This document shows, piece by piece, positions 45 through 27,300 of a DNA stretch of 64,000 nucleotides. Position numbers and translations under genes: made by a program. How positions within the stretch are numbered: position 1 is the first letter of the stretch; each line of letters starts with the position of its first letter. Origin of the DNA: a phage; sequence record PX969468.1; one strand, written 5' to 3'. The notes under the pieces were generated by a model. That model was not told the origin of the DNA. It ran no database searches and worked only from the letters and a program-made list of their open reading frames with translations.

Positions 45-797
45 ATGCATCAGGCTGATGCCCTTGCAGTTATGTTTGAAGCTGGCTATGATAATGAGAA
101 CCAGTTGATATTCTCCGGAACTGTGGAGTTTGTTGAAGACAGGTGGGAAGGTCCGACCAGAAAAACTAAGTTCATCTTTGGGGATGGTACTGAGAACATC
201 ATTAAGTGCCAAAGCACAAGATCTTATCAGAAAGGCACACCTCTGAACTCTGTGCTTAATGACCTACTGAAGGATATGAACTTGCCAAAAGGTAGGGTTG
301 TGGGTTTTGGAAACCAGACCCTGCAATACTCTATGGCTTTCTCTGGAAACACTGCAGAGAACCTCCGCAGGTTTGCAAGACTGACCAATTCAACATTTAG
401 CGTTCAGGATGGAGCTTTGTATTGGACCAAGGTTGGAAAAAGGTTCAAAGACTCTGTGTTTGAAATAAGTGCAGAGTCTGGGATGCACGGATCGCCTACC
501 CCTAAAAACCCAGAACCTGCTAAAAAACGAAAAGCTAAAGCTGCTGCCAAAGGTGGTTCGACATCTAAAAAGAAAAAGAAAAACCCGAGAGAGGATGTTG
601 GTCTTACTGTAACCACATGCCTTAACGGAGCTATCCTCCCAGAGTCCACTATTTATCTTAAAAGCAAGCAATATACAGGCTTCTATAAGGTGATCACGGT
701 GCATCATAAGGGCACCATAGAAGGCGGTGATTACACTACAGAGCTTGGCCTTGGGGAAACAGTGGGTGGAGTTGTTGACAAAACTGAGGAGGTATAA
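45..797 (+). CDS. phage structural protein (baseplate region) with Lys-rich linker; frame is open to the window start so the gene may begin upstream
   Basis: 250-aa ORF directly upstream of and abutting the spike-like gene; KKRKAKAAAKGGSTSKKKKK low-complexity linker; no stop codon between position 3 and the ATG at 45. Confidence 0.4.
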   Translation: MHQADALAVMFEAGYDNENQLIFSGTVEFVEDRWEGPTRKTKFIFGDGTENIIKCQSTRSYQKGTPLNSVLNDLLKDMNLPKGRVVGFGNQTLQYSMAFSGNTAENLRRFARLTNSTFSVQDGALYWTKVGKRFKDSVFEISAESGMHGSPTPKNPEPAKKRKAKAAAKGGSTSKKKKKNPREDVGLTVTTCLNGAILPESTIYLKSKQYTGFYKVITVHHKGTIEGGDYTTELGLGETVGGVVDKTEEV

Positions 798-1474
798 TGG
801 CAATAAATAGGAAAGATGCTGCTGTAAGATCCTTTATAGAAAAAATAATGAGGGACTACCACACCAGCATCAGGGCCAGAGTTGTCAGTGTTGACTACAG
901 TATTCCTTCTGCAGCCGTGCAGCCAATAGCTGAAACCACGTTTGATGACGGAGATGTGGAGAGATACCCTCTTATCTATGACGTTCCAATTCAGGTGATG
1001 TCTGCAAACAGCGGAAAGGCAAGGTTAACACTTCCTATTAAGGCTGGAGATGTTGTAGGATTGCAGTTTTCAGAGAGAAATGAAAACAATAACGACGATC
1101 AACAAACTCACGGCCTGTTTCCAGGGTGGGCAATCACCTCTGTTCATTCAGACTCAAACGCCTTACAGATCGATCCTGATAATGTAGAGTTATGGAATGA
1201 TAGGGTTTATTTTAAACTGACACCTTCTGGCGATTTTGAGCTTCAAACACCTGGTGGGACATTACGGTGCGACAGCAGCGGGGAGTTTTCTTTCACTAAC
1301 GGGGCTGCCAATTTGCGAGCTGCTGTGGATGGGAATATCAGAATGAATGGTGCTACAATAGACCCATCTGGTAGAATTATAACTGCTGCTGGCGTGGATT
1401 TGGATTCATTCTATGCAGAATATAAAGGTCATACCCACTCTTGCCCTGATGGCGAGACAAGTGGACCGCACTAA
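797..1474 (+). CDS. baseplate central spike protein (gpV/gp5 OB-fold-like)
   Basis: ATGA overlap with upstream gene; OB-fold-like motif IKAGDVVGLQFSERN; His/Cys-rich C-terminal tip GHTHSCPDGETSGPH resembling metal-binding spike apex. Confidence 0.45.
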   Translation: MAINRKDAAVRSFIEKIMRDYHTSIRARVVSVDYSIPSAAVQPIAETTFDDGDVERYPLIYDVPIQVMSANSGKARLTLPIKAGDVVGLQFSERNENNNDDQQTHGLFPGWAITSVHSDSNALQIDPDNVELWNDRVYFKLTPSGDFELQTPGGTLRCDSSGEFSFTNGAANLRAAVDGNIRMNGATIDPSGRIITAAGVDLDSFYAEYKGHTHSCPDGETSGPH

Positions 1475-1486
1475 TAGAGGGCTTTC

Positions 1487-2203
1487 ATGGCTACGCTTTA
1501 TAGTGATATATTGATGGACCCACAGACAGGCGATTTGGCGATAGACAAAGGTCTTGAGTTGATAGATTCAAACCAGGTAAGTCTGCGCCAGCGCTTGTGG
1601 ATGAGGTTTAATACGTGGAAGGGGAGCTGGTACTTTGACGAACTGTTTGGCTTCCCTTATATGGACTTTCTCAGTAAGAAGGTCATGAAGACTGTTCTTG
1701 ATAACAAGATTATGGAAGTGGCAAGACAAGAGCCGGATGTGCTAAACATCATAAACTTCCAGTCTACCATGGACCGAAGATCGAGAACATACCAAGCGTT
1801 CTTTGAGGTTGTTACCAAAGAGAACGAGATTGTAAGGCTGGCTTTCGTAGGTCTTGATCAGTTCACCTACCCACAACCTGATTCTGGGACAACCTCTCTC
1901 TGTGATGATGAGGGTTGGATTAAGTGGGCTAATAAACTGTACTACCTGATCAACTTCAGATTACCTAGAACCGGAGATGCTACATGGTGGAACCAGTATG
2001 CTGGTCCTGAGATGGAAAACCCGATCCCTGTAGGCTCTCTGTTGACTCAGGATAAAGATCTGCTGATGACTGAGGCAGAACAAACCATTAACCGCAATAC
2101 CTGGACACTTGCTCCAGATGAGCGCGAATACTCTGGTGTTATTGCTACCTCCAATGATGAGGCTATTGCCAACCAGTCTGGTCGTGCTATTGATGTTAAC
2201 TAA
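1487..2203 (+). CDS. putative baseplate wedge protein (gpW/gp25/Mu gp46-like)
   Basis: position after spike gene; N-terminal GDL...KG.WYFDELFGFPY pattern typical of small baseplate wedge proteins; assignment tentative. Confidence 0.3.
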   Translation: MATLYSDILMDPQTGDLAIDKGLELIDSNQVSLRQRLWMRFNTWKGSWYFDELFGFPYMDFLSKKVMKTVLDNKIMEVARQEPDVLNIINFQSTMDRRSRTYQAFFEVVTKENEIVRLAFVGLDQFTYPQPDSGTTSLCDDEGWIKWANKLYYLINFRLPRTGDATWWNQYAGPEMENPIPVGSLLTQDKDLLMTEAEQTINRNTWTLAPDEREYSGVIATSNDEAIANQSGRAIDVN

Positions 2204-2212
2204 GGAGAAATC

Positions 2213-2881
2213 ATGGCTGTAGCTTATCCTACAATACCAATTCCAGATCTTGAAGATGCAGAAACAGTCCTGAGTGATGACTTCTTGGTTGTCAACCAGA
2301 CTGATGGGACAAGAAAGGCTAAGATTGACGATGTTGTCAACGATCTTAGCATTACTAAGATAGTCTATTTCACAGATGGTGGCTATCTTAAGAGCAAGAA
2401 GGACTTTGCTTATGACCCAGAGACTAAGCGCTACTACACGTGGAACGGGGATTATCCTAAAATAATCCTCCCAGACTCCACTGTAGAGGGTGCTGGGGGT
2501 GTGTCTGCAAATGCATGGTCTGTTTTTGGTGAGCTTGCTGCAACTTCTTATGGCAGAATAGTTGATTACGGATCTATCGGCGGTCAGCTTGATATGGATC
2601 TTGAAGTTGCGGATACCTTTAAGGTTCGACTAACTTCAAATACCACAATCTCTTTTGAAAATCAAACAGAAGGTCTTGAAGGTGTGGCGAGAACTATAAC
2701 CGTATGCATTACTCAGACCTCTGGCGGCAACAAAGTCTACTGGCCTGATAATGTTAAATGGGCCTACGGAAGAGATCCTATCCTAACATTTACAGCTGGT
2801 GCAACAGATATTTTCAAGTTGGAAACCTACGACAACGGGTTAACTTGGTACGGGGCACTGATCATCGCAGGAGCTATCTAA
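2213..2881 (+). CDS. fiber-related protein sharing N-terminal anchor domain with the 5516..9316 fiber
   Basis: N-terminal ~110 aa align with N-terminus of 5516..9316 (DDFLVVNQTDGTRKAKIDDVV vs DDYLVVQQPDLTRRVKIGDVV; DFAYDPE vs DFAYFEE). Confidence 0.45.
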   Translation: MAVAYPTIPIPDLEDAETVLSDDFLVVNQTDGTRKAKIDDVVNDLSITKIVYFTDGGYLKSKKDFAYDPETKRYYTWNGDYPKIILPDSTVEGAGGVSANAWSVFGELAATSYGRIVDYGSIGGQLDMDLEVADTFKVRLTSNTTISFENQTEGLEGVARTITVCITQTSGGNKVYWPDNVKWAYGRDPILTFTAGATDIFKLETYDNGLTWYGALIIAGAI

Positions 2882-2882
2882 G

Positions 2883-5480
2883 ATGCGTATTCAACACAAC
2901 ATTGATAACGTATTTCAGATGATTGAGGGGCACAGGAAGTGCCTCGATAACAACACAGGTATTACCAACACCTCTACACAAAATAGGCTAGTAAACCCTG
3001 ATGGTCTTATAGCTGCAGGGTGGGCAGGTAATAAGATAAATAATGATTGGGCAATGCATGAGTCCCAAGCTGTGTTGATTCTGGGATACATTGAAGCATA
3101 CAGGGCATCGAAAAGCGATTTCTATCTGGATAGGGCAAAAGATGCTTGGGAAGCTTACAATAGTCATCTTCTGGGTGCATATGCTGTAGAAAGTAAAATG
3201 CAAAGATTGTCCCACTACCCTCTATCCACAGACGGGGTTCCATCACATGGTGGGTTTAAAGATGTGGTGGTGTCTTTTACCAATGGTAGAGGAAAAATCC
3301 CAACTGGATCTCCGACATGGGGGGAATACCTGGACAAGGCATTCCAAGCGTATAACGGTGTGTTAGGAAGAAACACTGTAGACTCTGATGTTTACGGTGG
3401 CACAGATGCTAACCCAGATTGGACAACATCCGGATTAAGTTGGTGGGTTGAGTGGTACATAGCATGGGATGGTAACCGCTATTGGGCTAACGGTAGCATA
3501 GCCGACAGTGGTCATACGTCTGTAGAGTTCGGCACAATCCAATTACAAGATAAGGGTGTTACAGGCAGCCACAAGGTGACCTATTGTGTAAGATTACCTC
3601 AAGAGCAGGGTGGATCGGTGATACCTGCAGGATCCCCTGTAATTGTAAATCCTATAAACGTGGTTGCAGATAATCAGGCCCCAGAGCTGGACGGGGAAGA
3701 AATGTGGTGTGACGCTTGTTATCAACTCTACACCTTGACAGGTGAGGAAAAGTATTACACCGCGTTTAAACAGTCTTACAACAAGTTGCTTAATTTCAGT
3801 GATATAAACGCCTACGACAAGCTGTTTAGAAAGACCACGTTGATTAAGGCACCGTTCACGGATGGTACTTGTCTTGTTGCAGGAACAGTTCCTGTCATGA
3901 GCAGGGACAGTGACGGGTATATCAATTTTAGAATGAACGCACGCCAGCCTTGCGAAATAATTCAAAAAGGGACTACATACAAAATAGGCAGAGATGCTGA
4001 AATTGTTATGAATTTCGGAGGAGAAGGGGTTCTGTTCCAGCCGCATTTCATCCTTAACGATGGCAACAATAACAAAAAACAGTACAGGATAGGGGTTCCT
4101 TTTGGAGGGGCAGAGGTAACAGAAGTAGTTGCCAAGGTCACTGATTTCGTAGAGGTAGTTGGTAAAGACGGTAATCCGTATCTCTTACCTAAAGAGGAAA
4201 ACATTGCCGTAAGCGGTGGTGCTAGTGTCAGTATGCAGTATGATACCGACATTTACAACCACTCTGACAACTTCACCCGTTGTAATATAGCAAGAGGCAA
4301 AGTAACTTTCAATTTTGGAAGAGAGATTTCTTTAAACTCAGTAACTTATCGATCAGATGATGAGATGGTAAGGGTCAAATTTCTTGACAAAGACAGGTGG
4401 TTATGGTATGCTGATCTATATGCCACTAATGGACAATGGATAACAGAAACTCTTACTCTAGGAGATTTCAAACTAGATCCGACACAACCTCATCACACCG
4501 AAGAAGAGATTAAACCTTTCTTTGCTAATCCTAAGGGGCTCACCTCTGTAGATTTCAGCCTAAGCGACAGACAGATAGGTAATGGCTTGTTTGATCTGTA
4601 TTGCGTCAACACACTGCCGCAATTTTATATTGCAGATAGAGATGCTTATCTAATCTGGTTTAGCGTATGGATGGCAAGCAAGACAGAATCAACCGCTAAG
4701 GTTGGCGATTGCTATGTCAGAAACTACAAGCAAGGTGCATACAGGCACACACCGGGTGTGTTCCCTGCCGGAAAGGTGATAGATAAGGAAAACTATCTCT
4801 TAGAGGAAAGGCCAAATTGGCCCTACCCTGGCATGCAATACCCAGCAGTCTACTGCATGGGTGCAGAAAACATAGATCGCCATAGATTGTCAAATACAAT
4901 AGGCTTTCTGTATGACGCTCAAGTCTGGTATAATAATACATTTAAGACAGAGGGTCCAGTTGCCTCACGTTATGTATGGCAAAGAGGTAATGAAGGGTTG
5001 ACTGGTTGGTGGGAGATGGTAGATAACTCTAAGCTCCAGTCAAGATCTTTTGTTGCTGCGTGCCGCACAATATATGAGCTCAAGAAACATAAAGAACCTG
5101 TTGATGAAAGACTATTCCTGTTCTGCCAGAAATGGGCATGGTTCCTCAACAGATTCCAGTCATCTCATTCAGGAAATCTGCCTACAGACTTTAACACCTC
5201 TGGGGGATATTCTTATCAGGACAGAGGAGACAGGATGTGGGTGGTAGGTGAATGGCTTGCAGGTTGCTGCTGGCTAGGTCTGTGCGGGTATTCAGAGACA
5301 ATACCTCAAATAGATATTGTTGTGGAAGCCTGTGTGAAGCTACTGCAAAAGCACCACTTCATTAATGGGGATAATATTTTAAACGGCTGCTGGGCAGTTT
5401 CTGACCCGGTTGGCTATCACTCTGGCGAAATCCTTCGCGGTCTAGGTCTTTATGCTCAATACCGTGGATTGTACCTTTAA
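2883..5480 (+). CDS. large tail-associated protein, possibly alpha/alpha-toroid glycosidase-like (candidate depolymerase)
   Basis: 865-aa ORF, Trp/Tyr-rich helical segments (ESQAVLILGYIEAYRASKSDFYLDRAKDAWEAY; DPVGYHSGEILRGLGLYAQY) reminiscent of six-hairpin glycosidases; hairpin plus T-run downstream at 5485-5503. Confidence 0.3.
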   Translation: MRIQHNIDNVFQMIEGHRKCLDNNTGITNTSTQNRLVNPDGLIAAGWAGNKINNDWAMHESQAVLILGYIEAYRASKSDFYLDRAKDAWEAYNSHLLGAYAVESKMQRLSHYPLSTDGVPSHGGFKDVVVSFTNGRGKIPTGSPTWGEYLDKAFQAYNGVLGRNTVDSDVYGGTDANPDWTTSGLSWWVEWYIAWDGNRYWANGSIADSGHTSVEFGTIQLQDKGVTGSHKVTYCVRLPQEQGGSVIPAGSPVIVNPINVVADNQAPELDGEEMWCDACYQLYTLTGEEKYYTAFKQSYNKLLNFSDINAYDKLFRKTTLIKAPFTDGTCLVAGTVPVMSRDSDGYINFRMNARQPCEIIQKGTTYKIGRDAEIVMNFGGEGVLFQPHFILNDGNNNKKQYRIGVPFGGAEVTEVVAKVTDFVEVVGKDGNPYLLPKEENIAVSGGASVSMQYDTDIYNHSDNFTRCNIARGKVTFNFGREISLNSVTYRSDDEMVRVKFLDKDRWLWYADLYATNGQWITETLTLGDFKLDPTQPHHTEEEIKPFFANPKGLTSVDFSLSDRQIGNGLFDLYCVNTLPQFYIADRDAYLIWFSVWMASKTESTAKVGDCYVRNYKQGAYRHTPGVFPAGKVIDKENYLLEERPNWPYPGMQYPAVYCMGAENIDRHRLSNTIGFLYDAQVWYNNTFKTEGPVASRYVWQRGNEGLTGWWEMVDNSKLQSRSFVAACRTIYELKKHKEPVDERLFLFCQKWAWFLNRFQSSHSGNLPTDFNTSGGYSYQDRGDRMWVVGEWLAGCCWLGLCGYSETIPQIDIVVEACVKLLQKHHFINGDNILNGCWAVSDPVGYHSGEILRGLGLYAQYRGLYL

Positions 5481-9355: not shown

Positions 9356-9384
9356 TTGCGTATTAACTCAAAATCTGGTAAAAT
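9356..9384 (+). promoter_or_regulatory. sigma70-like promoter with extended -10 (TTGCGT-N17-TAAAAT, TG at -15/-14)
   Basis: motif caaaatYTGGTAAAATA shared with 14866-14894 and 21197-21225. Confidence 0.45.
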
Positions 9385-14823: not shown

Positions 14824-14829
14824 CAGTAA

Positions 14830-14865: not shown

Positions 14866-14894
14866 TTGACTATTGTTACAAAATTTGGTAAAAT
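14866..14894 (+). promoter_or_regulatory. sigma70-like promoter TTGACT-N17-TAAAAT with TG extension
   Basis: ttgact at 14866-14871, taaaat at 14889-14894, preceded by tg. Confidence 0.5.
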
Positions 14895-16429: not shown

Positions 16430-17116
16430 ATGGCAGAGATTAAGTCGGATGTCAACCACATCCACACTCTGCCAGATTTTGTTCAGGGAGGTCTTGATTA
16501 CCTGCCTGGGGATTTTCTGGCTGAGAAGGTTAATTTAGTCACATTCTTAACCGTGTACCTTAAAAGGTTGGAGAATGTTGATAAAATACTGGTAGGCTTG
16601 GCTGAAGGAAGATTGCTTAACAATGCCAGCGGGAGATACCTTGACGAAGTTGGTAATCAACTTGGTATCCTTAGGAATGGTCTTTCAGACGCGGATTTTC
16701 GTGCTACGCTGATTATTCAGCAGGCAGCATCATCAAGAGGTGGTACTCGCGAAGATGTCATCTCCACCTTACGACAGTTGTTCGGAAGAGATAATTTCGA
16801 TACGTGGAAAGGTGACAATTTCAGGTTTGACATAAACATTAGAAAAACTTGCTTTGACATATTGCAGTCTATCGACCAGATCTTAGATATGCTGCCATTG
16901 CCTTGTCATTTGCGTCTTACGGAATCGCAAGGGCAAGCTTTTGGTTTTGAAGGGGACTCTGCAGCTCTCGGCTTCGGATCAGTGTGGGAAGAAAACCAGT
17001 TCGGGGTTGGTGGGTTGGCTACTTTGTTATATGTTCCTGACGTAAGACCTGATTGGGACACCACAACTATTTATTGTGAAAGTATTACAGTAAACGCAAC
17101 TAGACAGGAGGGTTAA
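16430..17116 (+). CDS. baseplate wedge component (DUF2612/gpI-like)
   Basis: follows baseplate J gene; motif GRYLDEVGNQLGILRNGLSDADFRATL resembling DUF2612 baseplate proteins. Confidence 0.4.
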   Translation: MAEIKSDVNHIHTLPDFVQGGLDYLPGDFLAEKVNLVTFLTVYLKRLENVDKILVGLAEGRLLNNASGRYLDEVGNQLGILRNGLSDADFRATLIIQQAASSRGGTREDVISTLRQLFGRDNFDTWKGDNFRFDINIRKTCFDILQSIDQILDMLPLPCHLRLTESQGQAFGFEGDSAALGFGSVWEENQFGVGGLATLLYVPDVRPDWDTTTIYCESITVNATRQEG

Positions 17117-19188
17117 TGGCAATAGCTGTTTTTAAACCTTACCGTGATTACTCTACAATGGCTGCACGGTTTCATTACCGCACAGTTCAAGATACTGCAG
17201 TTCCAGGTAGGGATTATGATCATGTTGAGGGTGATATAACTATTCCGGTTGGGGCAACCAGTATTGAGATTCCTGTAGAAATTGTTGACAAATTGCCAAA
17301 CAGGTTGCCAAGAAGCTTCTTTATGGAGTTTTCATCAAACTCCCAAGGGGTTATGATTGGAACACAAAGAGCGAAATGTACAATAGTTTCAGATGAGAAT
17401 CTTGACAGAATATCTTGGGATACCGTTGAGGAGAGAATGTTTCACCCAAGATACTGGGTTACAACCACACAGCAGACTGAAAGCACCTGTATTGTTGCGG
17501 ATAATAACTGCTGTATTAACCGTTTAGTGTCAAGAACATATGGAGGCATGGCTGGGTGCATTTGGGAAACAGTTGACAAGTATGACCATTTCGGTATTGG
17601 ATTTGATGATCACTACGAGATGAGAAACACCAAGCTTTGGTTCAGAATGTCAATAACCAATGCCAGCAACTTTTCCACCCCTGAAAAGATGATTATGACT
17701 GTAGACCTTGTTGATGGTACAATCATCTATGTTCCTTTAGCTCAATATGCTGTCAGCATCTCAGAGGATAAGAATGTTGCAGAAATTCATATTGATTTCG
17801 AGGACTGCGTCGGGATGGACCAGAACAACAACATGATGGGTGTTGATCCTCGGCAGGTGAGAAGGATTCTAATACCACTTATGCCTAAAGATTGGGTAGG
17901 TAATAGCACAGACCCGAGAACGGAAAATGTAGAGTGTGAGCTGCGTCTAGATCTGCTTCAGCCGGACACAGGCTGGAAAATGATGCAACTTAACAATATC
18001 CAGGTGAAAGAGCACGACGTCGGGATCTGCACAGCATATGACGATATGTGGAACGTATCCCCTTTAAGGGTGTTGAGCAATATCAAGCGCCTTGGCTATA
18101 CCGGAACCATAAATCATTATGTTGGTATGAGTCATTATTATGACTACACATGGTCAGGAACCCAATGGTCTATAAACAAAACAGGGGCTCTAAACGCTGC
18201 AGCTTATAAATGGCATGATGATTTTATGTACAATGCCAAACGACATGACTTCGACGTTATGCAGTCTGTAAGCTTTGAGCTTTATAGCGATGCCTGCCCG
18301 TTGGAATGGACCCAGAGAGACTGGAACGATAACTATGCTAAAACAGGCTATACGCCTTGTAGTTACCTCCTGTCTCCAACCATTGAAGAGGGTATGAATT
18401 TCCTTACTGCGGTATTTAAGAATTTTGCATCAGCCGCTATGAGAAACAACCTGCCAGTGATTATGCAGATTGGTGAACCGTGGTGGTGGTTCAATACCGA
18501 TACTCGTAAGCCTTGTATTTATGACTACCCTACAAAGCAGGCGTTTTATGATGAGACTGGTGAATATGCACTAGACATTGGGACTATTGACGATCCTAAA
18601 ACTGGCGGTGTTTATGACAAGTATGTAGCATTTTGTCGTGGTAAGCTTGGCGCTCGTATTGCAGCCATTTCAAAGGCAATAAAAGCACACGCTGCATCGG
18701 CTCAGATGACAGCTTTACTGTTTTTCCCCACTATTATGGAAACCGAGCTTACGCAAAAACTGAACCTTGCTGACCAATATAAAAAGGAAGCAGGTGCTCT
18801 TGATTTCTTCTGCACTGAGTGCTACGATTGGGTGATGCAGGGAGGTATTGAAAAGGCAAAAGAGTCTGTAAACATACCTATCGTTAAGTTAGGTTGGAAA
18901 CCGTCTGAAATACAATACCTTGCAGGGTTCGTTCCTAGCAAAGAGCTTGCTCCGGTATATGGCTACGACCCAACCAGGAATTACCAAGAATTTTTATGGA
19001 GATGTATTTGCGGAAACATGGCAACCATAGAGTATAGATACCCTGAGGTAAAACAGTATGTGTGGGCATACCCGCAAGTAATGTCTGACAGCATCACTGT
19101 TACCGCTAGAGATTCTACCGTGCTTCATATGGGGCAGGTTGCTCTGAAAGGGTATGTAGAAGATGTTGTCCCGCCAGACTTCTCATAA
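17116..19188 (+). CDS. structural protein with N-terminal Calx-beta-like domain; possible TIM-barrel glycosidase (candidate depolymerase)
   Basis: Calx-beta-like DTAVPGRDYDHVEGDITIPVGATSIEIPVEIVD; later QIGEPWWWFN and FFCTECYDW resemble glycoside hydrolase acid/nucleophile motifs; tentative. Confidence 0.3.
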   Translation: MAIAVFKPYRDYSTMAARFHYRTVQDTAVPGRDYDHVEGDITIPVGATSIEIPVEIVDKLPNRLPRSFFMEFSSNSQGVMIGTQRAKCTIVSDENLDRISWDTVEERMFHPRYWVTTTQQTESTCIVADNNCCINRLVSRTYGGMAGCIWETVDKYDHFGIGFDDHYEMRNTKLWFRMSITNASNFSTPEKMIMTVDLVDGTIIYVPLAQYAVSISEDKNVAEIHIDFEDCVGMDQNNNMMGVDPRQVRRILIPLMPKDWVGNSTDPRTENVECELRLDLLQPDTGWKMMQLNNIQVKEHDVGICTAYDDMWNVSPLRVLSNIKRLGYTGTINHYVGMSHYYDYTWSGTQWSINKTGALNAAAYKWHDDFMYNAKRHDFDVMQSVSFELYSDACPLEWTQRDWNDNYAKTGYTPCSYLLSPTIEEGMNFLTAVFKNFASAAMRNNLPVIMQIGEPWWWFNTDTRKPCIYDYPTKQAFYDETGEYALDIGTIDDPKTGGVYDKYVAFCRGKLGARIAAISKAIKAHAASAQMTALLFFPTIMETELTQKLNLADQYKKEAGALDFFCTECYDWVMQGGIEKAKESVNIPIVKLGWKPSEIQYLAGFVPSKELAPVYGYDPTRNYQEFLWRCICGNMATIEYRYPEVKQYVWAYPQVMSDSITVTARDSTVLHMGQVALKGYVEDVVPPDFS

Positions 19189-19200
19189 TCAGGAGATAAA

Positions 19201-20241
19201 ATGTCAAAACCTAGTTTTCCATTAGAGATTTGGGCAGAGGAGGATCAGGTTCTGCCTAACACCCACAGACAGAACAGGCTACGCCCGATTGATGATTTGT
19301 GGAGAAAAGGTTGGGATCTTGGTCAAAAGCCCTCATGTGAAGAACTTAACTATATTTTCAATATGCTCGGAACTTGGGCAAAATACATTGCTGACGAGCA
19401 GATCCCCGCTCAAGAAGGCCGTTATCTGGTACGCGATAATAACTTGAGTGATCTTTTGAACATCCCTGTTGCCCGTAGAAACCTTGGGATTATTACTAAG
19501 GAAGAGGCAGACGCCAGGTATGTAAAAGTTACAGGTGATACAATGACAGGCCCATTGGGTTTGCAACGTATCAACTTTAAAGCTGCCGAGACAGACAGGG
19601 CTTGGATAGAGACAACTATTGGCCCAGATAAGACAACTCTCGACTTTGGGTTAAGTGATAATATTGGGTCGTTTGATGATGGTGGTACATCTACAGTAGA
19701 TGCGTTTCGTTGGAGATTTCAGCCAACTCAGCCGGATATCAATCCGGAGTTCACTTTGATGTACCTTAACGCGATCACGGCTAACCGTGCGCTGTTGAAA
19801 GTGGTAGGCAATGTTGAAGTTGTCGATAACATGAGGTGCAATAACCTTACTATTAGCAATACAGCAACATTCACCAACTGTAATGTGGCTAGTCAGTTGA
19901 CGGCTGGGTCAGTGTATGTTAATGGTGGTACAAGTTGTGACAGTATGGTTGTAAGAAGTCAGCACTGTGTTGTCGGTAACAGAAATGTGGTGCGCTCTGT
20001 AAATGGAGTGACGGCTAACGGTAACGGTGATGTAACAATCACTATCCCGCAGACAGGTGTGCAAGACATCAGAATCGGTGCAAGACTTGTTGACGGCGTT
20101 TCCGAATCTCCAATTCGCAACGGCTACGTTGTCACAGGCTGGCATTTCGGTGACAAAAAAGAGATGCGTGGTTCAACCTACTGGGCAGGACCTTTACAAA
20201 AACTTGTAAATGGTCAATGGATCACTGTTAATTATGCATAG
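19201..20241 (+). CDS. tail fiber protein (short fiber, copy 1)
   Basis: classic tail-fiber motif ARRNLGIITKEEADARYVKVTGDTMTGPL; followed by Tfa chaperone gene; paralogue of 21253..22299. Confidence 0.7.
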   Translation: MSKPSFPLEIWAEEDQVLPNTHRQNRLRPIDDLWRKGWDLGQKPSCEELNYIFNMLGTWAKYIADEQIPAQEGRYLVRDNNLSDLLNIPVARRNLGIITKEEADARYVKVTGDTMTGPLGLQRINFKAAETDRAWIETTIGPDKTTLDFGLSDNIGSFDDGGTSTVDAFRWRFQPTQPDINPEFTLMYLNAITANRALLKVVGNVEVVDNMRCNNLTISNTATFTNCNVASQLTAGSVYVNGGTSCDSMVVRSQHCVVGNRNVVRSVNGVTANGNGDVTITIPQTGVQDIRIGARLVDGVSESPIRNGYVVTGWHFGDKKEMRGSTYWAGPLQKLVNGQWITVNYA

Positions 20242-20255
20242 ATCGGAGGACTAGC

Positions 20256-20840
20256 ATGAAAATACTTCAAGAGTTTAAACTTTACCAACCGGGATCTGGC
20301 GAATACCACGCCAACAAGGAAACCAAAGAGCTGACCCCTCAAGAGGTTGAGGATTACACCGCATACACTGGGTATTTTTTACGTAATGATGATGGCGATT
20401 GGTATGTGCAGTCACGAACATTACGACAAGAAAATCCGGGTTGTATCTTCCTACTTGTTGACGAGAAGGGAATTCTTAAGACATCTACAGAAGAGCCTGA
20501 TGCCTTATGGCCTGCTCCAGGTCTTCGTGTGGTTATCGCCAAAAAAGAAGAGGTACCAGAAAACATTATGCTTCACCACGACGCTTTGCGTTTAGTTGGT
20601 GATGAATTTGTCACAGATAATGAATTCTTTGTTCAACAGGCAGAGGGTGTCATAGAGACAGAACTTGCTTGGGCTACTGCTAGAATTGGTGCCTATCAAG
20701 ACATGATTGACCTTGAATATGATCTTACTGATGACCAGAAACGTAACATCAGAGATTTGAAAATGTACAGGGTAAAACTTCTTGAAATAGATACATCTAA
20801 AGCCCCTGACATTTTCTTCCCGGAGCGACCTACCCTCTAA
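20256..20840 (+). CDS. tail fiber assembly chaperone (Tfa family)
   Basis: C-terminal YRVKLLEIDTSKAPDIFFPERP matches conserved Tfa/Caudo_TAP C-terminus; immediately downstream of fiber gene. Confidence 0.7.
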   Translation: MKILQEFKLYQPGSGEYHANKETKELTPQEVEDYTAYTGYFLRNDDGDWYVQSRTLRQENPGCIFLLVDEKGILKTSTEEPDALWPAPGLRVVIAKKEEVPENIMLHHDALRLVGDEFVTDNEFFVQQAEGVIETELAWATARIGAYQDMIDLEYDLTDDQKRNIRDLKMYRVKLLEIDTSKAPDIFFPERPTL

Positions 20841-20851
20841 GAGGAGGTGTT

Positions 20852-21166
20852 GTGGAGTTGGATTTGGCGGCATTGTACGGTATCTGCATGGGTACCGTTG
20901 TCCCGATCTGTGTATGGGCTTTCAACCAGTGGCACACCAAATGGAAAGGCATTTCCAAGAGGTTGGATGAACTGGAGAAAGACCTCATCTTAGTGAAAAA
21001 CAGTATGGTTACAAAAGATAAACTTGATTCCGTTATCGAGACCCGGTTAAGCAAGCTAGAGGCCGATATTAACGACCTTAAGCAGGATGTCAGGACAGAT
21101 GTCTCCGGCATCCGAGCTGATGTACAAAAGATTTTGCACATGCTTGTAGAGCATAGTAAAAGGTAA
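20852..21166 (+). CDS. small membrane-anchored coiled-coil protein
   Basis: GTG start after AGGAGG; N-terminal hydrophobic helix (LYGICMGTVVPICVWAF) then coiled coil. Confidence 0.3.
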   Translation: MELDLAALYGICMGTVVPICVWAFNQWHTKWKGISKRLDELEKDLILVKNSMVTKDKLDSVIETRLSKLEADINDLKQDVRTDVSGIRADVQKILHMLVEHSKR

Positions 21167-21196
21167 ACAAAGGTCAGGACGGAAAGGACTCCGTTC

Positions 21197-21225
21197 TTGC
21201 ATTTTGTTTCCTAAAGTGTTAAAAT
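21197..21225 (+). promoter_or_regulatory. sigma70-like promoter TTGCAT-N17-TAAAAT with TG extension, upstream of second fiber paralogue
   Basis: ttgcat 21197-21202, taaaat 21220-21225; preceded by weak hairpin plus T-run at about 21177-21196. Confidence 0.45.
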
Positions 21226-21252
21226 AGTCCTAAGGAATTTTCTCAGGAGAAC

Positions 21253-22299
21253 GTGATGACTAAACCAGTTATCCCTCTTGATATTTGGGCCAATCAGGAT
21301 GTTGTGCTTGAAAATACGGGAGAATTGAATAAGTCTCAACCAAAAAAAGAAGAGAGATTGAAAGGTTGGGATATGACACAAAGAGTGGCATGTGAAGTTG
21401 TTAACTTTGAACTTCACATGCTTTCTGCGTGGTTAAAGCATTTAACAGAAGATGTTGTCCCAGGATGGGATAATAGATTCTTAAGGGTCACTAATAATCT
21501 AGCAGACGTTCCAGACAAAGCTGCTGCACGTCAAGTTCTCAATGTATACTCGCCTGAAGAAATGGACGATCTGTATGTTGACAAGTCTGGAGACATAATG
21601 ACTCAGACTCAAACTTTAGGCCTTCAAAGAATCGAGTTTGCATCTGCGTCAACAGACAATGCGGCAATATATACCACCATAACCTCAGACAAGACGATGA
21701 TGGATTTCTGGATTATGGACAACATCGGTGGTGCTGACGGCACAGATCTTGATGATCCTTCTCACCAAATAGACGGGTTCCGTTGGAGATTTCAGCCTTC
21801 TGGTGGGCAGCCTGTGTTTTCGGCTATGAAGCTCAATGCTATAACTGCCAACCGTGCAAGACTGGCTATTCAAGGAAATCTTGAATGCAACGATGCAAAA
21901 AGTTCCTCTGCAAATGCCAATGCAGTTACTATACCAAGAGCCACTGTTAATGGTCAACAATCCTGTGGAAGCGCTCAAATAGGTGGAAGAGTTGATTGTA
22001 ACGATGAAACCGTCAGGGGCCAATATGCAACAGTTGGTGGAAGAAACGTGGTCCGTAGGGTAAATGGTAACAGCGCAGACGGTAGTGGTAACCTTACTAT
22101 TCCTATGCCTAGTAGGGGTGTTGAAGATGTAAGGATAGCAAACCGTTTCAGAACCACCTACAGAGAATCAAGAGTATACCCTGGGCATGTAATGTGCTCC
22201 GGCAATTACGCCTATAAACACCCGTATCAGGGCGACTATTGGACTGGAGCCATTCAAAAATTTGTAAATGGTCAATGGATCACTATATCTTATGCTTAA
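21253..22299 (+). CDS. tail fiber protein (short fiber, copy 2; paralogue of 19201..20241)
   Basis: alignable end to end with 19201..20241 (PLEIWAEEDQVL vs PLDIWANQDVVL; FRWRFQP; LNAITANRA; C-terminal KLVNGQWITVNYA vs KFVNGQWITISYA); central region diverged. Confidence 0.7.
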   Translation: MMTKPVIPLDIWANQDVVLENTGELNKSQPKKEERLKGWDMTQRVACEVVNFELHMLSAWLKHLTEDVVPGWDNRFLRVTNNLADVPDKAAARQVLNVYSPEEMDDLYVDKSGDIMTQTQTLGLQRIEFASASTDNAAIYTTITSDKTMMDFWIMDNIGGADGTDLDDPSHQIDGFRWRFQPSGGQPVFSAMKLNAITANRARLAIQGNLECNDAKSSSANANAVTIPRATVNGQQSCGSAQIGGRVDCNDETVRGQYATVGGRNVVRRVNGNSADGSGNLTIPMPSRGVEDVRIANRFRTTYRESRVYPGHVMCSGNYAYKHPYQGDYWTGAIQKFVNGQWITISYA

Positions 22300-22310
22300 A
22301 AAGAGGGTAA

Positions 22311-22577
22311 ATGAAATTAACTCAGTTTTTATGGGGGTTGGTTGCAGCATCTGATGACCCTACGAAAGTGTCCCAATCTAAGCTATGGTCAAACATAGGC
22401 ATGGCAGTGATGACTGGGGTGTTTATTCATATGGGGTACAATGATACGCTTCCTGAATGGTATGCGTGGATATATGCACCTTCAGTAGCCTGCCCCCAGC
22501 TTATTAGCAAATTCATCTCGCTCCGGTGGGGTTGCCAGCACCCTGACCACGTTAAAAACGAAGAGCAAAAAGCTTAA
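22311..22577 (+). CDS. hypothetical small protein with hydrophobic segment
   Basis: 88-aa ORF with RBS (agagggtaa) between fiber genes. Confidence 0.3.
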   Translation: MKLTQFLWGLVAASDDPTKVSQSKLWSNIGMAVMTGVFIHMGYNDTLPEWYAWIYAPSVACPQLISKFISLRWGCQHPDHVKNEEQKA

Positions 22578-22586
22578 GGAGAAATC

Positions 22587-24332
22587 ATGGCGCAAGACAT
22601 GACAAGCTTCGAGCAGGCGGTAGATCAAGTAATTGTTGATTCTGAACGTTTGCACTTGATTGTCAACGGTAACGCTGTGGATGAAGTTGTCGTAGAGGAT
22701 GGGACCACCATCCCTACGGTACGAAAAGCCATGCTTGACACCCTTTATTTTAAAACGCCACCAATCCCTTGGGCGTATGGTGCATCCACAACAGTTTTTA
22801 ACCAGTTGTATGAGTTTAAAGGGGATACAGGCACTCAGTGGTGGTATGCCCCAGCAGCATCAAAATCTAACCCGGTTAGGATGCCAGCAGATCCTTCACA
22901 ATCTCCGAACTGGAGATTATATACCGATTCTGCAGTAATGGCAAAATACTACGCAAAACTTAACAGTCCAAGGTTCGAAGGTGACCCGAGAGCACCTACA
23001 CCTCCAATGGACGATAAGTCCGAGTCTATAGCAAACACAGAGTTTGTTGTTGACTATGTGGATAGTATATTCAAAGCCATGGAGGGGATGAAAGTAACTG
23101 TAGGGTCTTTGGTAGTAAAAGGTCTTACAGAACTGGCTAACACCATAGTTGGTGGCACCCTTACCATACACGGGCCTGTTAATGGAGCGGATTCTACTGC
23201 ACGCTTCAGGAACCTAATCCTTACTGCAAATACTTCTACACTAACTTTTGCGTGGAGCGATCCTAAGCATGCCGACTGGAGAAGCACAGAGCTGCAACCT
23301 CATGAAGTATCCACCCACAGAGTTATAGCCGACACTATAACCTCTGGGAAACCAGTGGCTAATAACAACGATGTGCATTTTGACGGTCTAGGTAATAACT
23401 TTTTTGACTACGTGTACATTCGTGGTAATGCCATGAAGGCAGCAACCGAACCGACATTGCAGGTCGATGGGACCACTAGGGTTAAGAACCTTGAGGTGAC
23501 AGGTACCGTTACAGGGATAACCTACTCTGTCGATGGCACCATGATCTACCCTAGCTATATTGAAAGCACGGGTGACGCATTAATAAATGGTGATTTGGAG
23601 GTTGGCGGGTCTGTAGTTATTCGAGGTACGGCCTCTATCCAAAACATAGCTCTGAATACTCTCAGAGTCAATGAGCGTGCAACTTTTGAAGGAGAAGGGC
23701 TTACAGCCAACAAAGGTGTAATTACCGAGCTGACAACCACCACTTTAACTGCAACAACTGCAAACTCTGAAAACTGCAACGTTACCAGAAACTTGCAGGT
23801 AAATGGGGATGTTAGTTTAAACGCAGCAGGTACGGGCACCACCTACCTTCACAACCTTGAAATATCCGGCACAGTGACTGGTTGGCTGCCAGACTTCTCT
23901 AATGTCAACTTTGTCTGTAATGGTATTAACTCTAGTGGTAAGATAACCACCTCTCAAGAAATTGAGGCTGGTAAAACCATCACTGCCCCTACTTTCCACG
24001 CAGGGAAGGTAGATTTCGATTTAGAGGAGGTTGACGCGTCCAGTGGGACATGGACACCTAACGGGCAGGCCAGTATGTATGTTGTCCACGCTAAAGGGGA
24101 TTTTACAATAGGCCAATGGCCTGGAACATCGGCTGAAGATAAACCTTACCCGTTTACTGCAATCATCTATGTCATTCAAGATGCCGTAGGCCACAACGTG
24201 ACTTTGCACGATAAATATGCCATACTGTCGGCTACCCCTGTTATTAACAACAAAGCCAACAGCGTCACCTTGCTACAATTGACATATTGTGGTGTTGGTG
24301 ATATCGTAGATGTGGTTATTGCACAACGTTAA
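22587..24332 (+). CDS. tail fiber/tailspike-like protein
   Basis: 581 aa, Thr/Gly/Asn-rich beta-rich repeats (VTGTVTGITYSVDG; LTATTANSENCNVTRNLQVNGDVSLN); RBS; terminator downstream. Confidence 0.4.
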   Translation: MAQDMTSFEQAVDQVIVDSERLHLIVNGNAVDEVVVEDGTTIPTVRKAMLDTLYFKTPPIPWAYGASTTVFNQLYEFKGDTGTQWWYAPAASKSNPVRMPADPSQSPNWRLYTDSAVMAKYYAKLNSPRFEGDPRAPTPPMDDKSESIANTEFVVDYVDSIFKAMEGMKVTVGSLVVKGLTELANTIVGGTLTIHGPVNGADSTARFRNLILTANTSTLTFAWSDPKHADWRSTELQPHEVSTHRVIADTITSGKPVANNNDVHFDGLGNNFFDYVYIRGNAMKAATEPTLQVDGTTRVKNLEVTGTVTGITYSVDGTMIYPSYIESTGDALINGDLEVGGSVVIRGTASIQNIALNTLRVNERATFEGEGLTANKGVITELTTTTLTATTANSENCNVTRNLQVNGDVSLNAAGTGTTYLHNLEISGTVTGWLPDFSNVNFVCNGINSSGKITTSQEIEAGKTITAPTFHAGKVDFDLEEVDASSGTWTPNGQASMYVVHAKGDFTIGQWPGTSAEDKPYPFTAIIYVIQDAVGHNVTLHDKYAILSATPVINNKANSVTLLQLTYCGVGDIVDVVIAQR

Positions 24333-24341
24333 TATATCTGA

Positions 24342-24366
24342 CCGCTCCTGACGGGGCGGTTTTCTT
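24342..24366 (+). terminator. rho-independent terminator
   Basis: ccgctcc-tgac-ggggcgg followed by ttttctt. Confidence 0.6.
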
Positions 24367-24380
24367 ATCTGGAGAACACA

Positions 24381-27300
24381 ATGCTTCCAATCCCTTTGCT
24401 AAAACTTGGTCGTCATTTCCTCGATAAGAGGGGTGGAGTTAAGGAACTTGCTGTTCTGTCATACCCAATAGACAACAGTGACGGTACAAGCACTACAGTG
24501 CCATATGTAAATAGCTTAGCCATACTTTTTGACGACGGTCAACTCAATATTACAGGTTACAACAGGTTCGGGGAGTGCAGGACTGGAGATCTTGACACGA
24601 TAAACTACCCAAATGAGGCTGCCTGGAACGTTGATCATGTGTGGAGAGCAGACCGTGCGTTTGTGATCCGAACTTTTGATAATCAGTTTTTCTACATCGG
24701 CTGCACTGCAGGGCTTATTGGATCTGATGCTGCAGGTGGTAATGATGTTTGTGTAAGGGAGTGGACACCTCTTCCTGAACAGATTGTTAAAGGGTTGCAC
24801 CTTGACACCCACCCGGAGCGCCTTGTTGAGGTGATGGGTGGTATTAACAACACTGTCTGGGTTATTGCAGAGGCAGAAGGCACAGGCATACTGAATCTGT
24901 ATGGGTCTGGTAACAACACCTACGGATCTTTGCATGTAGATAAAAATCAGCATGCAACCCCTGTAAAGATCGGTGAGACATCGGAAAATCCTGAAACAGG
25001 CCCTTGGAAAAACCCAAGCATTAACTGCGAGGTGCATGACAACTCTGTTATTTTCGGTGGTCCTAGAGGTTTCTGGATTGCTGGATACGACTTTCTGAGA
25101 AATAACAGTAGAAACGACCTTGTTTGGCCTCCTGTGCAGATTACTCGTAACGATTTGAGAGGCATTCCTGCAGATGAGGAGTGGAAAGGGTTTATGTGTG
25201 GTCCTAACGGGGCAATAATTGCCACACAGAGGATGCACAAACCTAATGACCAGCAGCTTGTTAACGTATTCTACGGGCAAGACGTCTGGGGAGATGACAC
25301 ATGGCGTTCCTTAAATATCACCTACACCCATGAGGTGATAATGGCTCGTGGATACGGCACAAGTGGCATTTTCTTCAATAATGGCACTAAGCAGTATCGT
25401 GGGTTCTCTCGCAACTTGTGTAATGATATTGGTGCACAATCTGCAAACAATAGCCCTAGGGCCAATTTTATCCACTATCAAGCTCTTGCTACAGCTAAAT
25501 ATGTTGAGCAACGCCTGCCAGTTAGCTGGACAGAGAGTGTTTATTTCCAAGGCATCCACAGAGAAGGTTTCTTAGGGACCTTTACTGTTGTTAATGGTAA
25601 ACTTTGGTGGTCAGGCATCCCGAGGGGAAGTTTTGCAGGATCTAACAACCTGTTTGGCGGCAGACTTAATAGTCAGGGGTTCACAGAGGTTCCTGAGAAT
25701 TGGTATAAAAATGTCCCAGTAGACAGTTGGGGTGTTGATGATATTTTCGATGTTAACGGTGTTAGCAGCGTTAGCAATATCTACATTGGTGACACGGTCA
25801 AGATGAAACTGAAGCCTCAGCCAGAGGGGGCTACGTTCATTATTGACAAAATTGAACTGGTAAATGCTGCAGGCACGGTTGTTACAGATGCAAATTACCA
25901 ATTCTCCACCAACTGGAACCACGGTGGGGCCAACGAAGTTGTTGTTACCCAATATAACAGAAATGTTAACAGACGTGGACTGTACTCTGTAAAAATAACC
26001 TATCATGACAAACATGGCACAGGCAGAACCCACACAACAAGGACTTTGAACTGGAACACTATCGTCCCAGCGTACCCGTCTGATGGTAAATGGCATACTG
26101 TCGGTAGAAACAAACAGTTCCATGTCAACGATACTGTATACTTTGGGTTGAATGCCGCCCAGCCTGCAGTAGAAGGGGATACATCGTATATGGTCAGACT
26201 CCATAGAATGGATGCTGGATCAGTAACTTATGATGTTACTCAAGAGATTTATAATCAGCGACGAAATACCTATGATAACTTGGTGCAGACACAGGCCTTA
26301 TGGGAGTTCAACCCAAACGGCAGAGGTGGTAAAATGTTGCAGGTCAATGAACAAAACTGGACATCGTTGACTGTTCACGAACACCAAAACCCTTGGCCTG
26401 ATCCTGGAAAACCTAACTCTGGTGCTCGTACACTGAAAATTGTCAGCCATGATGTAGGGTATTTCGGAATACGCTGGGAAGCTACAGTAAGATATGCTGA
26501 TGGGACAACAAACAACATAGGGATCACTCTTGGTGGCACTAGTGAGGATAACTCACTGAAAATTGCCTACACCCCTAGAGGCATCTCTATTGACAATATG
26601 GATGTTGTTCGCAACGGTTACGGCGATGTGAATGTCAAAGTTACTCTTGGCGAACATCTTGGTGGGGAAAGGATCATCATGTATGCCTTTGATCATGACC
26701 CTCGCACCAATGGAACCTATGCAGACCAAGCATGGAGTTACCTGATAAGCGCACCTGAGCCAAATACTAAAGAATTCTACTATGGTATGAAGCGAGATGT
26801 GTGCAAGAAAACAGGAACACATGACTGGATTGCTATCTGCGTTAAAGATGAGCGCACAGCTTGGGATGAGCCTGTTAACAGATGGTTCATAGGTATTCCT
26901 ACCAGAAGTGATAAGTATGTCGCAGAGTATATTGTATGCATGGGCGGTACCAACCTGAACATGTGTTGGAACGAAGATGTAAACAAATACTCTGATTATG
27001 ACTATATGAGGGATTACTCTTGCAATCTGTGGTTTAACCAAACTACAGGTTACCCTCCGCGTCAGGCAAGGGTAAATCCTGCAATCTTTACAGATACTCA
27101 GGTTTTCTTGACAAAACAGGCCAACGAGGTTCAGACCTTCAAGAATAAATACGATCCTAACAAGTGGTTCTACAACTGTTACGGCGCATTTTTCTGGGGC
27201 CCTGGTGAGTTACCTGGTGGAGGATCTTGCTTGAATGAGGCAACTTACGCCAGTGACTACATCATGGGGCAGGTCAAGAAGTATAAGATAATTCCCGGTC

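Follow-up and report, generated by a model that had tools for sequence, protein, structure and literature searches.

We analysed a 64,000-nucleotide (nt) stretch of phage DNA (sequence record PX969468.1; hereafter, the window) that carries two short tail fibre genes, STF1 and STF2, the first of which alone is followed by a gene for a tail fibre assembly chaperone, Tfa. Gene-order comparison shows that STF2, together with a conserved hairpin and a late promoter, occupies the slot that in other genera belongs to a gene for a membrane protein of 157 amino acids (aa) and family PF26221. Taken as a whole, the evidence leads us to favour, as likely rather than assured, an old fibre duplication whose two products would both be made late, be incorporated into the same virions and give them two terminal-receptor specificities.

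The 3.6 kb around the fibre locus are 97.4–98.0% identical in nucleotide sequence to the listed Vequintavirus genomes (rV5, JES2013, EmilHeitz, Gotham and others), and the same 3.6 kb matched 117 phage records, 115 of them at 95–99% identity. By this measure, the window is a Vequintavirus, that is, an rV5-like E. coli phage with ~98% nucleotide identity to rV5. The order and sizes of the genes in the fibre locus are the same as in the annotated records of rV5, EmilHeitz and Gotham, and synteny with rV5-like records is conserved through the wedge genes, gp34, STF1, Tfa, gp31, STF2, gp29 and gp28. Positions 19201–24332 are, gene by gene, the short-tail-fibre locus equivalent to rV5 gp33-gp32-gp31-gp30-gp29-gp28.

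Much of this had been described. Kropinski et al. 2013 (PMC3606486) reported that rV5 gp30 (347 aa) and gp33 are similar proteins, 42.3% identical, and listed in their Table S4C a putative late promoter, P030, whose sequence, TTGTTCTCTAAAGTGTTAAAATAGTCCTAAGGAATTT, is the one that precedes copy 2 here. Maffei et al. 2021 (PMC8594841) described the paralogues as being without allelic variation and the locus as homologous to GpS/GpU of phage Mu, and they noted a single such fibre in phi92-like phages and in Phapecoctavirus. The GenBank and BASEL annotation of Vequintavirus likewise gives "short tail fiber protein" twice and one "tail fiber chaperone". The paralogues, the promoter and the Mu homology were thus all in print by 2013 and 2021, and the finding, though real, is an ordinary one; our incremental additions concern the replacement of a gene, how old the duplication is, the classes to which the tips belong, the covariation in the hairpin and the missing proteomic proof.

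Two Intact and Diverged Fibre Paralogues

STF1 (19201..20241, + strand) and STF2 (21256..22299, + strand) encode proteins of 346 and 347 aa, the orthologues of rV5 gp33 and gp30, respectively. An earlier note on this DNA, made from the sequence alone, had described the two as full-length paralogues, and this description was borne out: they align with 43% identity and 59% positives over 356 columns (E = 2e-94), and the PHROG 4465 profile ("tail fiber protein") matches residues 1–346 of STF1 (E = 2.1e-171) and 1–347 of STF2 (E = 1.7e-165), covering profile positions 1–342 of 342. The start of copy 2, which the note had set at GTG 21253, has to be moved to ATG 21256, the start given in the annotations of rV5, EmilHeitz and Gotham. 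We rejected the GTG because it is not conserved (it is GCG in rV5 and Gotham) and because, only 3 nt beyond the AGGAG at 21245–21249, it is too close to that element. The note had further proposed conserved termini around a diverged centre. The extreme ends are indeed alike (the first ~30 and the extreme C-terminal residues), but between them the identity is a mosaic: in 30-residue windows along STF1, it is 50% at residues 1–30, 27–30% at 46–90, 53–63% (the best) at 106–148, 23% at 201–245, 53–57% at 246–290 and 27–30% at 291–335.

Both fibre genes are intact in every relative, genome or contig, that we examined. STF1 is 98–99% identical across Vequintavirus records and STF2 96.5–99% across ~117 of them, and the mean ratio of nonsynonymous to synonymous substitution rates (dN/dS) across eight Vequintavirus sequences is 0.042 for STF1 and 0.062 for STF2, like that of the neighbouring genes. 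Judged by these substitution patterns, both paralogues are under strong purifying selection. Near-identical copies or disabling changes in one copy, both of which figure among the findings that the earlier note had named as fatal to its proposal, were not what we found, given the 43% identity, the low dN/dS of both genes and their intact reading frames.

At its N-terminus, STF1 (residues 1–108) matches the short tail fibre of phage phiTE (PDB 9cuy; E = 1.5e-19), as does STF2 (residues 1–83; E = 1.9e-8). STF2 retains all of the family-invariant residues of this baseplate-docking N-terminus, plus the Mu-type C-terminal end. The C-terminus of STF1 (residues 286–343) matches residues 440–501 of the Mu tail fibre protein S (PDB 5yvq; E = 5e-6), and a profile of the STF family matches the same Mu GpS tip (5YVQ) with E = 1.3e-11. 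AlphaFold2 models built from 7-sequence alignments were not used: the proteins are obligate trimers, the models were run as monomers, and the mean predicted local distance difference test score was 30.9 for STF2 and 30.8 for STF1, with no confident residue.

A separate observation concerns the 3' ends of the two genes, where a 23-nt stretch, TTGTAAATGGTCAATGGATCACT, is identical in both paralogues (20203–20225 and 22261–22283), six synonymous positions included. The stretch may be what a short gene-conversion event left behind, or it may serve as an anchor for recombination that exchanges the tips.

The Second Copy Occupies the Slot of a Membrane Protein Gene

How did the second copy come to stand where it does? 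In other genera, the order of the region is STF, Tfa, a 104-aa gene, a 157-aa gene, a gp29-like gene and a fibre gene. This single-STF layout was seen in Avunavirus (Av-05), Seunavirus (4MG, SSE121 and GAP31), Mydovirus (Mydo), Henunavirus (Hena1) and a Seunavirus-like metagenomic contig; the exceptions in size are the 157-aa gene of Mydo, annotated as 134 aa, and the gp29-like gene, which has 87–91 aa and is annotated as 55 aa in Hena1. Across the six phages of four genera compared, the second fibre cassette is absent outside the Vequintavirus-like clade.

The 157-aa product is a polytopic membrane protein (Pfam PF26221, Phage_phiTE_239), and, except in Mydo, the start of its gene and the stop of the 104-aa gene overlap. 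A tblastn search found the gene in 107 phage records, all of those genera and of Certrevirus. Since only 16 of the 107 are Escherichia phages, the ~117 Vequintavirus records, ~97 of which are named Escherichia, cannot be among them. Similarly, the 157-aa gene had no significant match anywhere in the 64-kb window. In Vequintavirus, the slot holds 89 nt of intergenic DNA and STF2, and it is flanked by genes that are orthologous to those of Av-05 (32% identity for the 104-aa gene and 50% for the 88-aa gene). The gene order thus shows STF2, the hairpin and the late promoter in the place of the PF26221 gene. By comparison, the ancestor that was duplicated was of the Mu GpS type and equivalent to fibre III (gp147) of phi92 and to the phiTE short tail fibre.

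When did this happen? An IMG/VR scan with STF2 gave four close loci, and a search of 5.8 billion proteins gave five clusters, two of which opened new lineages, neither of them represented in the phage collection. Four contigs (L015–L018) have the two-fibre layout with STF1 87–89%, Tfa 78% and STF2 77% identical to the window. A third two-fibre lineage, L020 (positions 116–3254 of NODE_327 in ENA ERZ15185469), has an STF1 of 73% identity, a Tfa of 204 aa that is only 45% identical to that of the window and a second fibre of 354 aa. Across the three lineages, the lowest identities to the window copies are 73% for STF1 and 43% for STF2. Neighbour joining places the six STF1 and STF2 proteins of these lineages in one clade apart from all of the other genera (bootstrap 100%), within which STF1 is a subclade at 100% and STF2 a longer-branched one at 63%. 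The tree and the layout together indicate that duplication and replacement took place once, at the base of the Vequintavirus-like clade, and that the event is old.

Horizontal acquisition of STF2 was also considered and was rejected as the main explanation, since the paralogue clade has 100% bootstrap support and the closest relative of STF2 outside its own orthologues is STF1 (272 bits versus at most 236). Neither in 50,697 phage records nor in the 5.8-billion-protein search was there a non-orthologous protein closer to STF2 than STF1.

Two observations stand beside these. The contigs L015–L018 (Logan ERR6997038, SRR27327045 and ERR4623478; ENA ERZ16268152) are 67–126 kb long and encode proteins 77–90% identical to those of the window. 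Their STF2 allele occurs in no record of the 50,697-genome phage collection, and on these identities they may represent an undescribed Vequintavirus-like species group. Furthermore, the other Vequintavirinae genera have three small genes after the chaperone, within the late fibre operon, the middle (157-aa) one of which Vequintavirus has lost.

A Weak Hairpin and a Predicted Late Promoter Precede the Second Copy

The earlier note had placed copy 2 behind its own terminator, a hairpin with a T-run. A terminator scan did find the hairpin (21176..21197, + strand), which has an 8-bp stem, AGGACGGA/TCCGTTCT, with 4 G-C pairs and a 6-nt loop, AAGGAC. Its 56-nt context folds at −22.2 kcal/mol (z −4.9 versus shuffled sequence). 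Compensatory double changes affect three of six pairs in the first alignment and four of seven once L020 is added; by this covariation, the hairpin is real and its pairing is conserved. The T-run, on the other hand, is interrupted (TGCATTTTGTTT), and "its own terminator" is overstated, given that the stem alone has −10.4 kcal/mol and only −4.8 kcal/mol in L015. The terminators at 14829, 24340 and 30024 have −15.3 to −16.5 kcal/mol. The stringent terminator list of rV5 (PMC3606486) omits the hairpin before gp30, and an Rfam scan of positions 19000–24500 at E up to 1 returned no family. The element probably acts as an intrinsic terminator of low strength that leaks, or it stabilises the 3' end of the upstream transcript, and so weak a hairpin makes read-through likely.

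The loop motif AAGGA (21184–21188) is kept in all lineages although the stem around it varies by compensatory substitutions, and this constancy suggests that the loop sequence itself is recognised by something. A 5-codon mini-open reading frame (TTG 21197) after the loop seems to be due to chance. A second helix predicted between the −35 and −10 elements, which shows no double-sided changes, was treated as spurious.

The second proposal of the earlier note, a TTGCAT-N17-TAAAAT promoter before copy 2, held up well. The elements of P030 (21197..21226, + strand) are read directly in the sequence: TTGCAT at 21197–21202, a 17-nt spacer, TG at 21217–21218 and TAAAAT at 21220–21225. Across all three lineages, L015–L018 and L020 among them, no change has occurred in TTGCAT, in TGnTAAAAT or in the 17-nt spacing, and the remaining spacer and flanking sequence has diverged. 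The same promoter is predicted independently in the record of phage Gotham. TAAAAT agrees with the −10 consensus at five of six positions and TTGCAT with TTGACA at only three of six, which is why a sigma-70 scan did not list P030.

Does this promoter give copy 2 a regulation of its own? P030 matches the rV5 late motif TGnTAAAATA at 21217–21226. This motif, TGGTAAAATA, amounts to an extended −10 element. The window contains 17 matches to it versus 5.6 expected; its intergenic copies are at 9376, 14886 and 21217, the one at 14886 lying just downstream of a hairpin. "Separately regulated", as the note had put it, therefore goes too far: P030 carries the same motif as the promoters of other rV5 late structural operons, so that copy 2 would have its own start site and most probably the same late timing. 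The unit that starts there is closed by a strong intrinsic terminator (24340..24361, + strand; −15.3 kcal/mol), the t028 of rV5 (Table S4D, PMC3606486), with a 9-bp stem of 6 G-C pairs, a tetraloop and then TTCTTAT. From the positions of these signals, the likely units are one from P036 (~14866–14894) that covers gp36 to gp31 and one from P030 that covers STF2, gp29 and gp28 until 24340. A literature search turned up no transcript data for any Vequintavirus.

An "alternative cassette" in the sense of a switch likewise finds no support in the DNA. Both fibre genes are on the + strand, and the only inverted repeats are four short imperfect pairs of 14–18 nt, none of which flanks a gene; invertase genes were not searched for. 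With both copies on the same strand and no long flanking inverted repeats, co-expression is likelier than a switch.

Fibre Tips and Receptors

Between the window and L015, the last ~50 residues of each paralogue are nearly invariant and the shafts have diverged, the whole proteins being 77–89% identical. The tips of Justusliebigvirus, Av-05 and SSE121 are 56% identical to that of STF1 and have the motif GHV-TGW-FG-KKE-RG in common with it. For the STF2 tip, the identity is 42% with STF1 and 32–40% with the others, and CSGNYAYKHPYQG replaces the shared motif. Both tips end in QK-VNGQWIT--YA. The terminal receptor of Vequintavirus and Justusliebigvirus has been genetically mapped to the first outer-core glucose (GlcI) of lipopolysaccharide (LPS). 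The tip class of STF1 and the receptor that these genera share fit STF1 as the GlcI binder and STF2 as a binder of something different. The idea of two receptors is an old hypothesis.

The Chaperone and the Neighbouring Genes

The Tfa gene (20256..20840, + strand; 194 aa, the rV5 gp32 orthologue) starts 15 nt after the STF1 stop. Its product matches Pfam PF02413 Caudo_TAP (residues 121–192; E = 8.4e-12) and PHROG 136 (E = 2e-36); a PDB sequence search with it gave no meaningful match and did not reach Mu GpU. As the earlier note had stated, the chaperone follows copy 1 only: tblastn over the 64-kb window found no second Tfa, and the gene directly after STF2 codes for no chaperone; its 88-aa product carries a membrane-protein annotation.

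The note had overlooked a 104-aa open reading frame that lies between Tfa and copy 2 (20852..21166, + strand; the rV5 gp31 orthologue; PHROG 5345, E = 1e-48). The protein has an N-terminal hydrophobic segment (residues 1–25 in the window) and a coiled coil, and the syntenic 104-aa genes of Av-05, 4MG, Mydo, SSE121, GAP31 and Hena1 are 32–33% identical to it. The 88-aa protein after STF2 (22311..22577, + strand) is the rV5 gp29 orthologue (PHROG 1322 "membrane protein", E = 2.7e-32). It is syntenic in all of the genera examined at ~50% identity, with a dN/dS of 0.014, and, judging from its position, gp29 would be co-transcribed with STF2. The last gene of the unit that begins at P030 (22587..24332, + strand) encodes a tail fibre protein of 581 aa, the rV5 gp28 orthologue (PHROG 4549, E = 3e-250), orthologues of which carry Pfam PF26208/PF26209 (Phage_phiTE_241_N/C).

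Upstream of the fibres, 16430..17116 (+ strand) encodes, as a single copy, the small baseplate wedge subunit (rV5 gp35). Its matches in PDB by phmmer (9mjn "Wedge 1 protein", E = 4.7e-67; Phi92_gp146, E = 3e-23) mark it as orthologous to phiTE Wedge 1, to which the N-terminus of the phiTE short tail fibre attaches (PMC11972413). The product of 14928–16418 matches phiTE Wedge 2 (E = 3.4e-158). The gp34 orthologue between the wedge genes and STF1 (17116–19188) has non-contractile tail sheath domains of the N4 gp65 type (PF23844/PF23845, E = 7e-80) and a Calx-beta domain, in agreement with the published NGR/ECA-related glycan binding by that fibre.

Possible Roles of the Second Fibre

In the reading that we favour, transcription of both fibre genes would be late. 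The late promoter upstream, near 14866–14894, would serve STF1, Tfa and gp31; read-through of the hairpin and re-initiation at P030 would together serve STF2, gp29 and gp28, with the strong terminator at 24340 as the end of the unit. Both proteins would form homotrimeric fibres whose conserved N-termini dock on the baseplate wedge, as in the solved phiTE and the fitted phi92 structures, and the single Tfa would help to fold both tips. STF1 would likely bind GlcI and the STF2 tip probably a second LPS-core-related determinant, so that the virions would carry two terminal-receptor specificities. More speculatively, and as a possibility that we think less likely than not, the paralogues may compete for the same six wedge sites to give mixed fibres on each virion, in a ratio set by the leaky hairpin and P030; the cassette would have been installed once, displacing the membrane-protein gene, after which the STF2 tip would have stayed STF1-like (as in L020) or gained a new specificity (as in the lineage of the window).

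Are both fibres built into the virion? The text of the rV5 paper (PMC3606486) states that gp30, gp32 and gp33 were "detected by total phage proteomics", and orthologous single fibres are abundant in the virions of relatives (for example, W70_112 with 659 spectra). A number of points nevertheless weigh against the reading that we favour. Table S5 of the rV5 paper lists 19 loci (61, 60, 53, 52, 133, 79, 152, 82, 34, 237, 41, 62, 235, 106, 37, 1, 27, 228 and one more, which could not be named and whose peptides are not encoded in the window), and none of them is 30, 32 or 33. No tryptic peptide of STF1 or STF2 was found in the mass spectrometry (MS) supplement of that paper, and, according to the CB7 paper, MS confirmed only six of the sixteen predicted rV5 virion proteins. 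The published proteomics consequently do not document either fibre in virions. The baseplates of phi92 and phiTE (PMC11972413) have six fibre positions of the STF type, which two paralogues would have to share. The bootstrap support for the STF2 clade is modest, and STF2 alone gave no match to the Mu GpS tip in a PDB sequence search, though its alignment with the family includes the last 60 residues.

The remaining points concern the tips. In L020, the last ~70 residues of the two paralogues are ~84% identical, the shafts are ~40% identical and the DNA of the tips is only 73–76% identical. Because these tips differ at many synonymous sites, they point to long-term retention and not to recent gene conversion, and tips that have been kept alike for so long argue that the retention of both copies cannot be put down to distinct receptor specificity alone. 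Furthermore, the genetic screens in K-12 gave one terminal receptor, GlcI alone, and the BASEL authors (PMC8594841) favour one shared secondary receptor. "Alternative receptor-binding protein", the earlier note's term for the pair, is thus overstated: the idea was already proposed in 2013, stays inferred and is weakened by the like tips of L020.

Could the two fibres share one receptor, the same LPS-core sugar, with STF2 kept for its geometry or dosage, that is, for shaft length or flexibility, a second position or the supply of fibres? The like tips that L020 has retained on unlike shafts, the K-12 screens and the lack of allelic variation reported by Maffei et al. (PMC8594841) all fit this explanation, which we regard as unlikely but to be taken seriously. 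On the other hand, the tips of the window's own lineage are only 42% identical, with CSGNYAYKHPYQG in STF2 in place of TGW-FG-KKE-RG, and the STF2 variant of the tip hardly changes between two lineages with 77% identity in STF2 as a whole, so that it looks like a constrained and different binding surface.

It seems quite improbable that STF2 is an adaptor or branch point for the gp28 fibre encoded two genes downstream and not an independent baseplate fibre. STF2, gp29 and gp28 do form one unit between P030 and the terminator at 24340, and the phiTE fibres (PMC11972413) contact each other as a network in which a third fibre is unassigned; yet the gp28 orthologue occurs without STF2 in other genera, and gp28 therefore does not need STF2, which, moreover, keeps the invariant docking residues and the Mu-type end described above. 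Very improbable, too, in our view, is a regulated alternative in which STF2 would be expressed at another time or under other conditions than STF1, yielding progeny with one fibre or the other. The promoter of its own and the conserved hairpin upstream, which overlaps the −35 element, would suit such a scheme, but P030 shares its class with the other late promoters of the structural region, the two genes are on the same strand without long flanking inverted repeats, and the weakness of the hairpin suggests read-through. That one copy is a decaying, non-functional duplicate is effectively refuted: beyond the longer branch of STF2 relative to STF1, nothing was found in its favour, and both copies are intact everywhere examined, have dN/dS values of 0.04 and 0.06 and have been kept in three diverged lineages.

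Comparison with Known Systems

Compared with rV5 itself, at the same locus, the window has an identical P030 sequence. One A-U pair of the rV5 hairpin is G-U in the window, and a GTG immediately precedes the ATG of STF2; otherwise, nothing of substance differs. Sixteen GenBank records of the series MG0656xx, which are named "Campylobacter phage" with C. jejuni as the stated host, are 97.6–98% identical to positions 19001–22600 of the window. They look like mis-assigned rV5-like coliphages.

Fibre III (gp147) of phi92 and its counterparts in Justusliebigvirus (e.g., JohannJBalmer bas62_0030/0031) are homologous fibres that are likewise followed by a Tfa gene and a small open reading frame. Their tip is 56% identical to that of STF1, and their terminal receptor, by genetics, is the same LPS GlcI. 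They differ from the window in having a single copy and no second cassette, and the shaft is largely unalignable, with 23–24% identity to STF2 over the full length and, for STF1, an alignment of the 57-aa tip only. In phi92 (PMC13450770), gp147 forms six trimers on the wedge and is proposed to bind irreversibly and trigger contraction.

The phi92 paper (PMC13450770) gives the wedge as one gp145 and two gp146, whereas PDB 21vq contains two 495-aa gp145 and one 209-aa gp146, a stoichiometry that matches phiTE 9cuy (two Wedge 2 and one Wedge 1). The naming of the subunits in the phi92 text may be swapped, which bears on the subunit credited with holding fibre III.

The phiTE short tail fibre (PDB 9CUY/9MJN, PMC11972413) has a homologous docking N-terminus, modelled for residues 3–92 on Wedge 1, and the wedge orthologues are conserved. 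In contrast to the fibres of the window, it has 554 aa, a coiled-coil shaft, Ig-like distal domains and the flagellum as its receptor, and it is a single copy in a genome where the 157-aa gene is present. In the case of Mu GpS/GpU (PDB 5YVQ), the C-terminal tip is homologous to that of STF1, the Caudo_TAP gene is immediately downstream as it is for STF1, and the receptor is the LPS core. However, Mu switches two fibre–chaperone pairs (S/U and S'/U') by inversion of the G segment, whereas the window has direct repeats on one strand and one chaperone. T4 gp12 has the same proposed role, the irreversible binding of the LPS core, and HHpred linked rV5 gp30 and gp33 to it (PMC3606486); PDB sequence searches with STF1, STF2 and the family profile recovered none of the T4 gp12 chains. 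T4 differs in its chaperone, gp57A, and in having a single short-fibre gene.

Significance

Phages of the rV5 type are frequent candidates when pathogenic E. coli is to be treated or controlled by phage, and their terminal receptor step decides which strains are killed and how resistance arises. L020, which has two fibres with the same tip, is awkward for a simple story of two receptors. If the two fibres do differ in the LPS-core structures that they recognise, one core mutation would not be enough to make a strain fully resistant, and the second fibre would be an obvious handle for engineering the host range of the phage.

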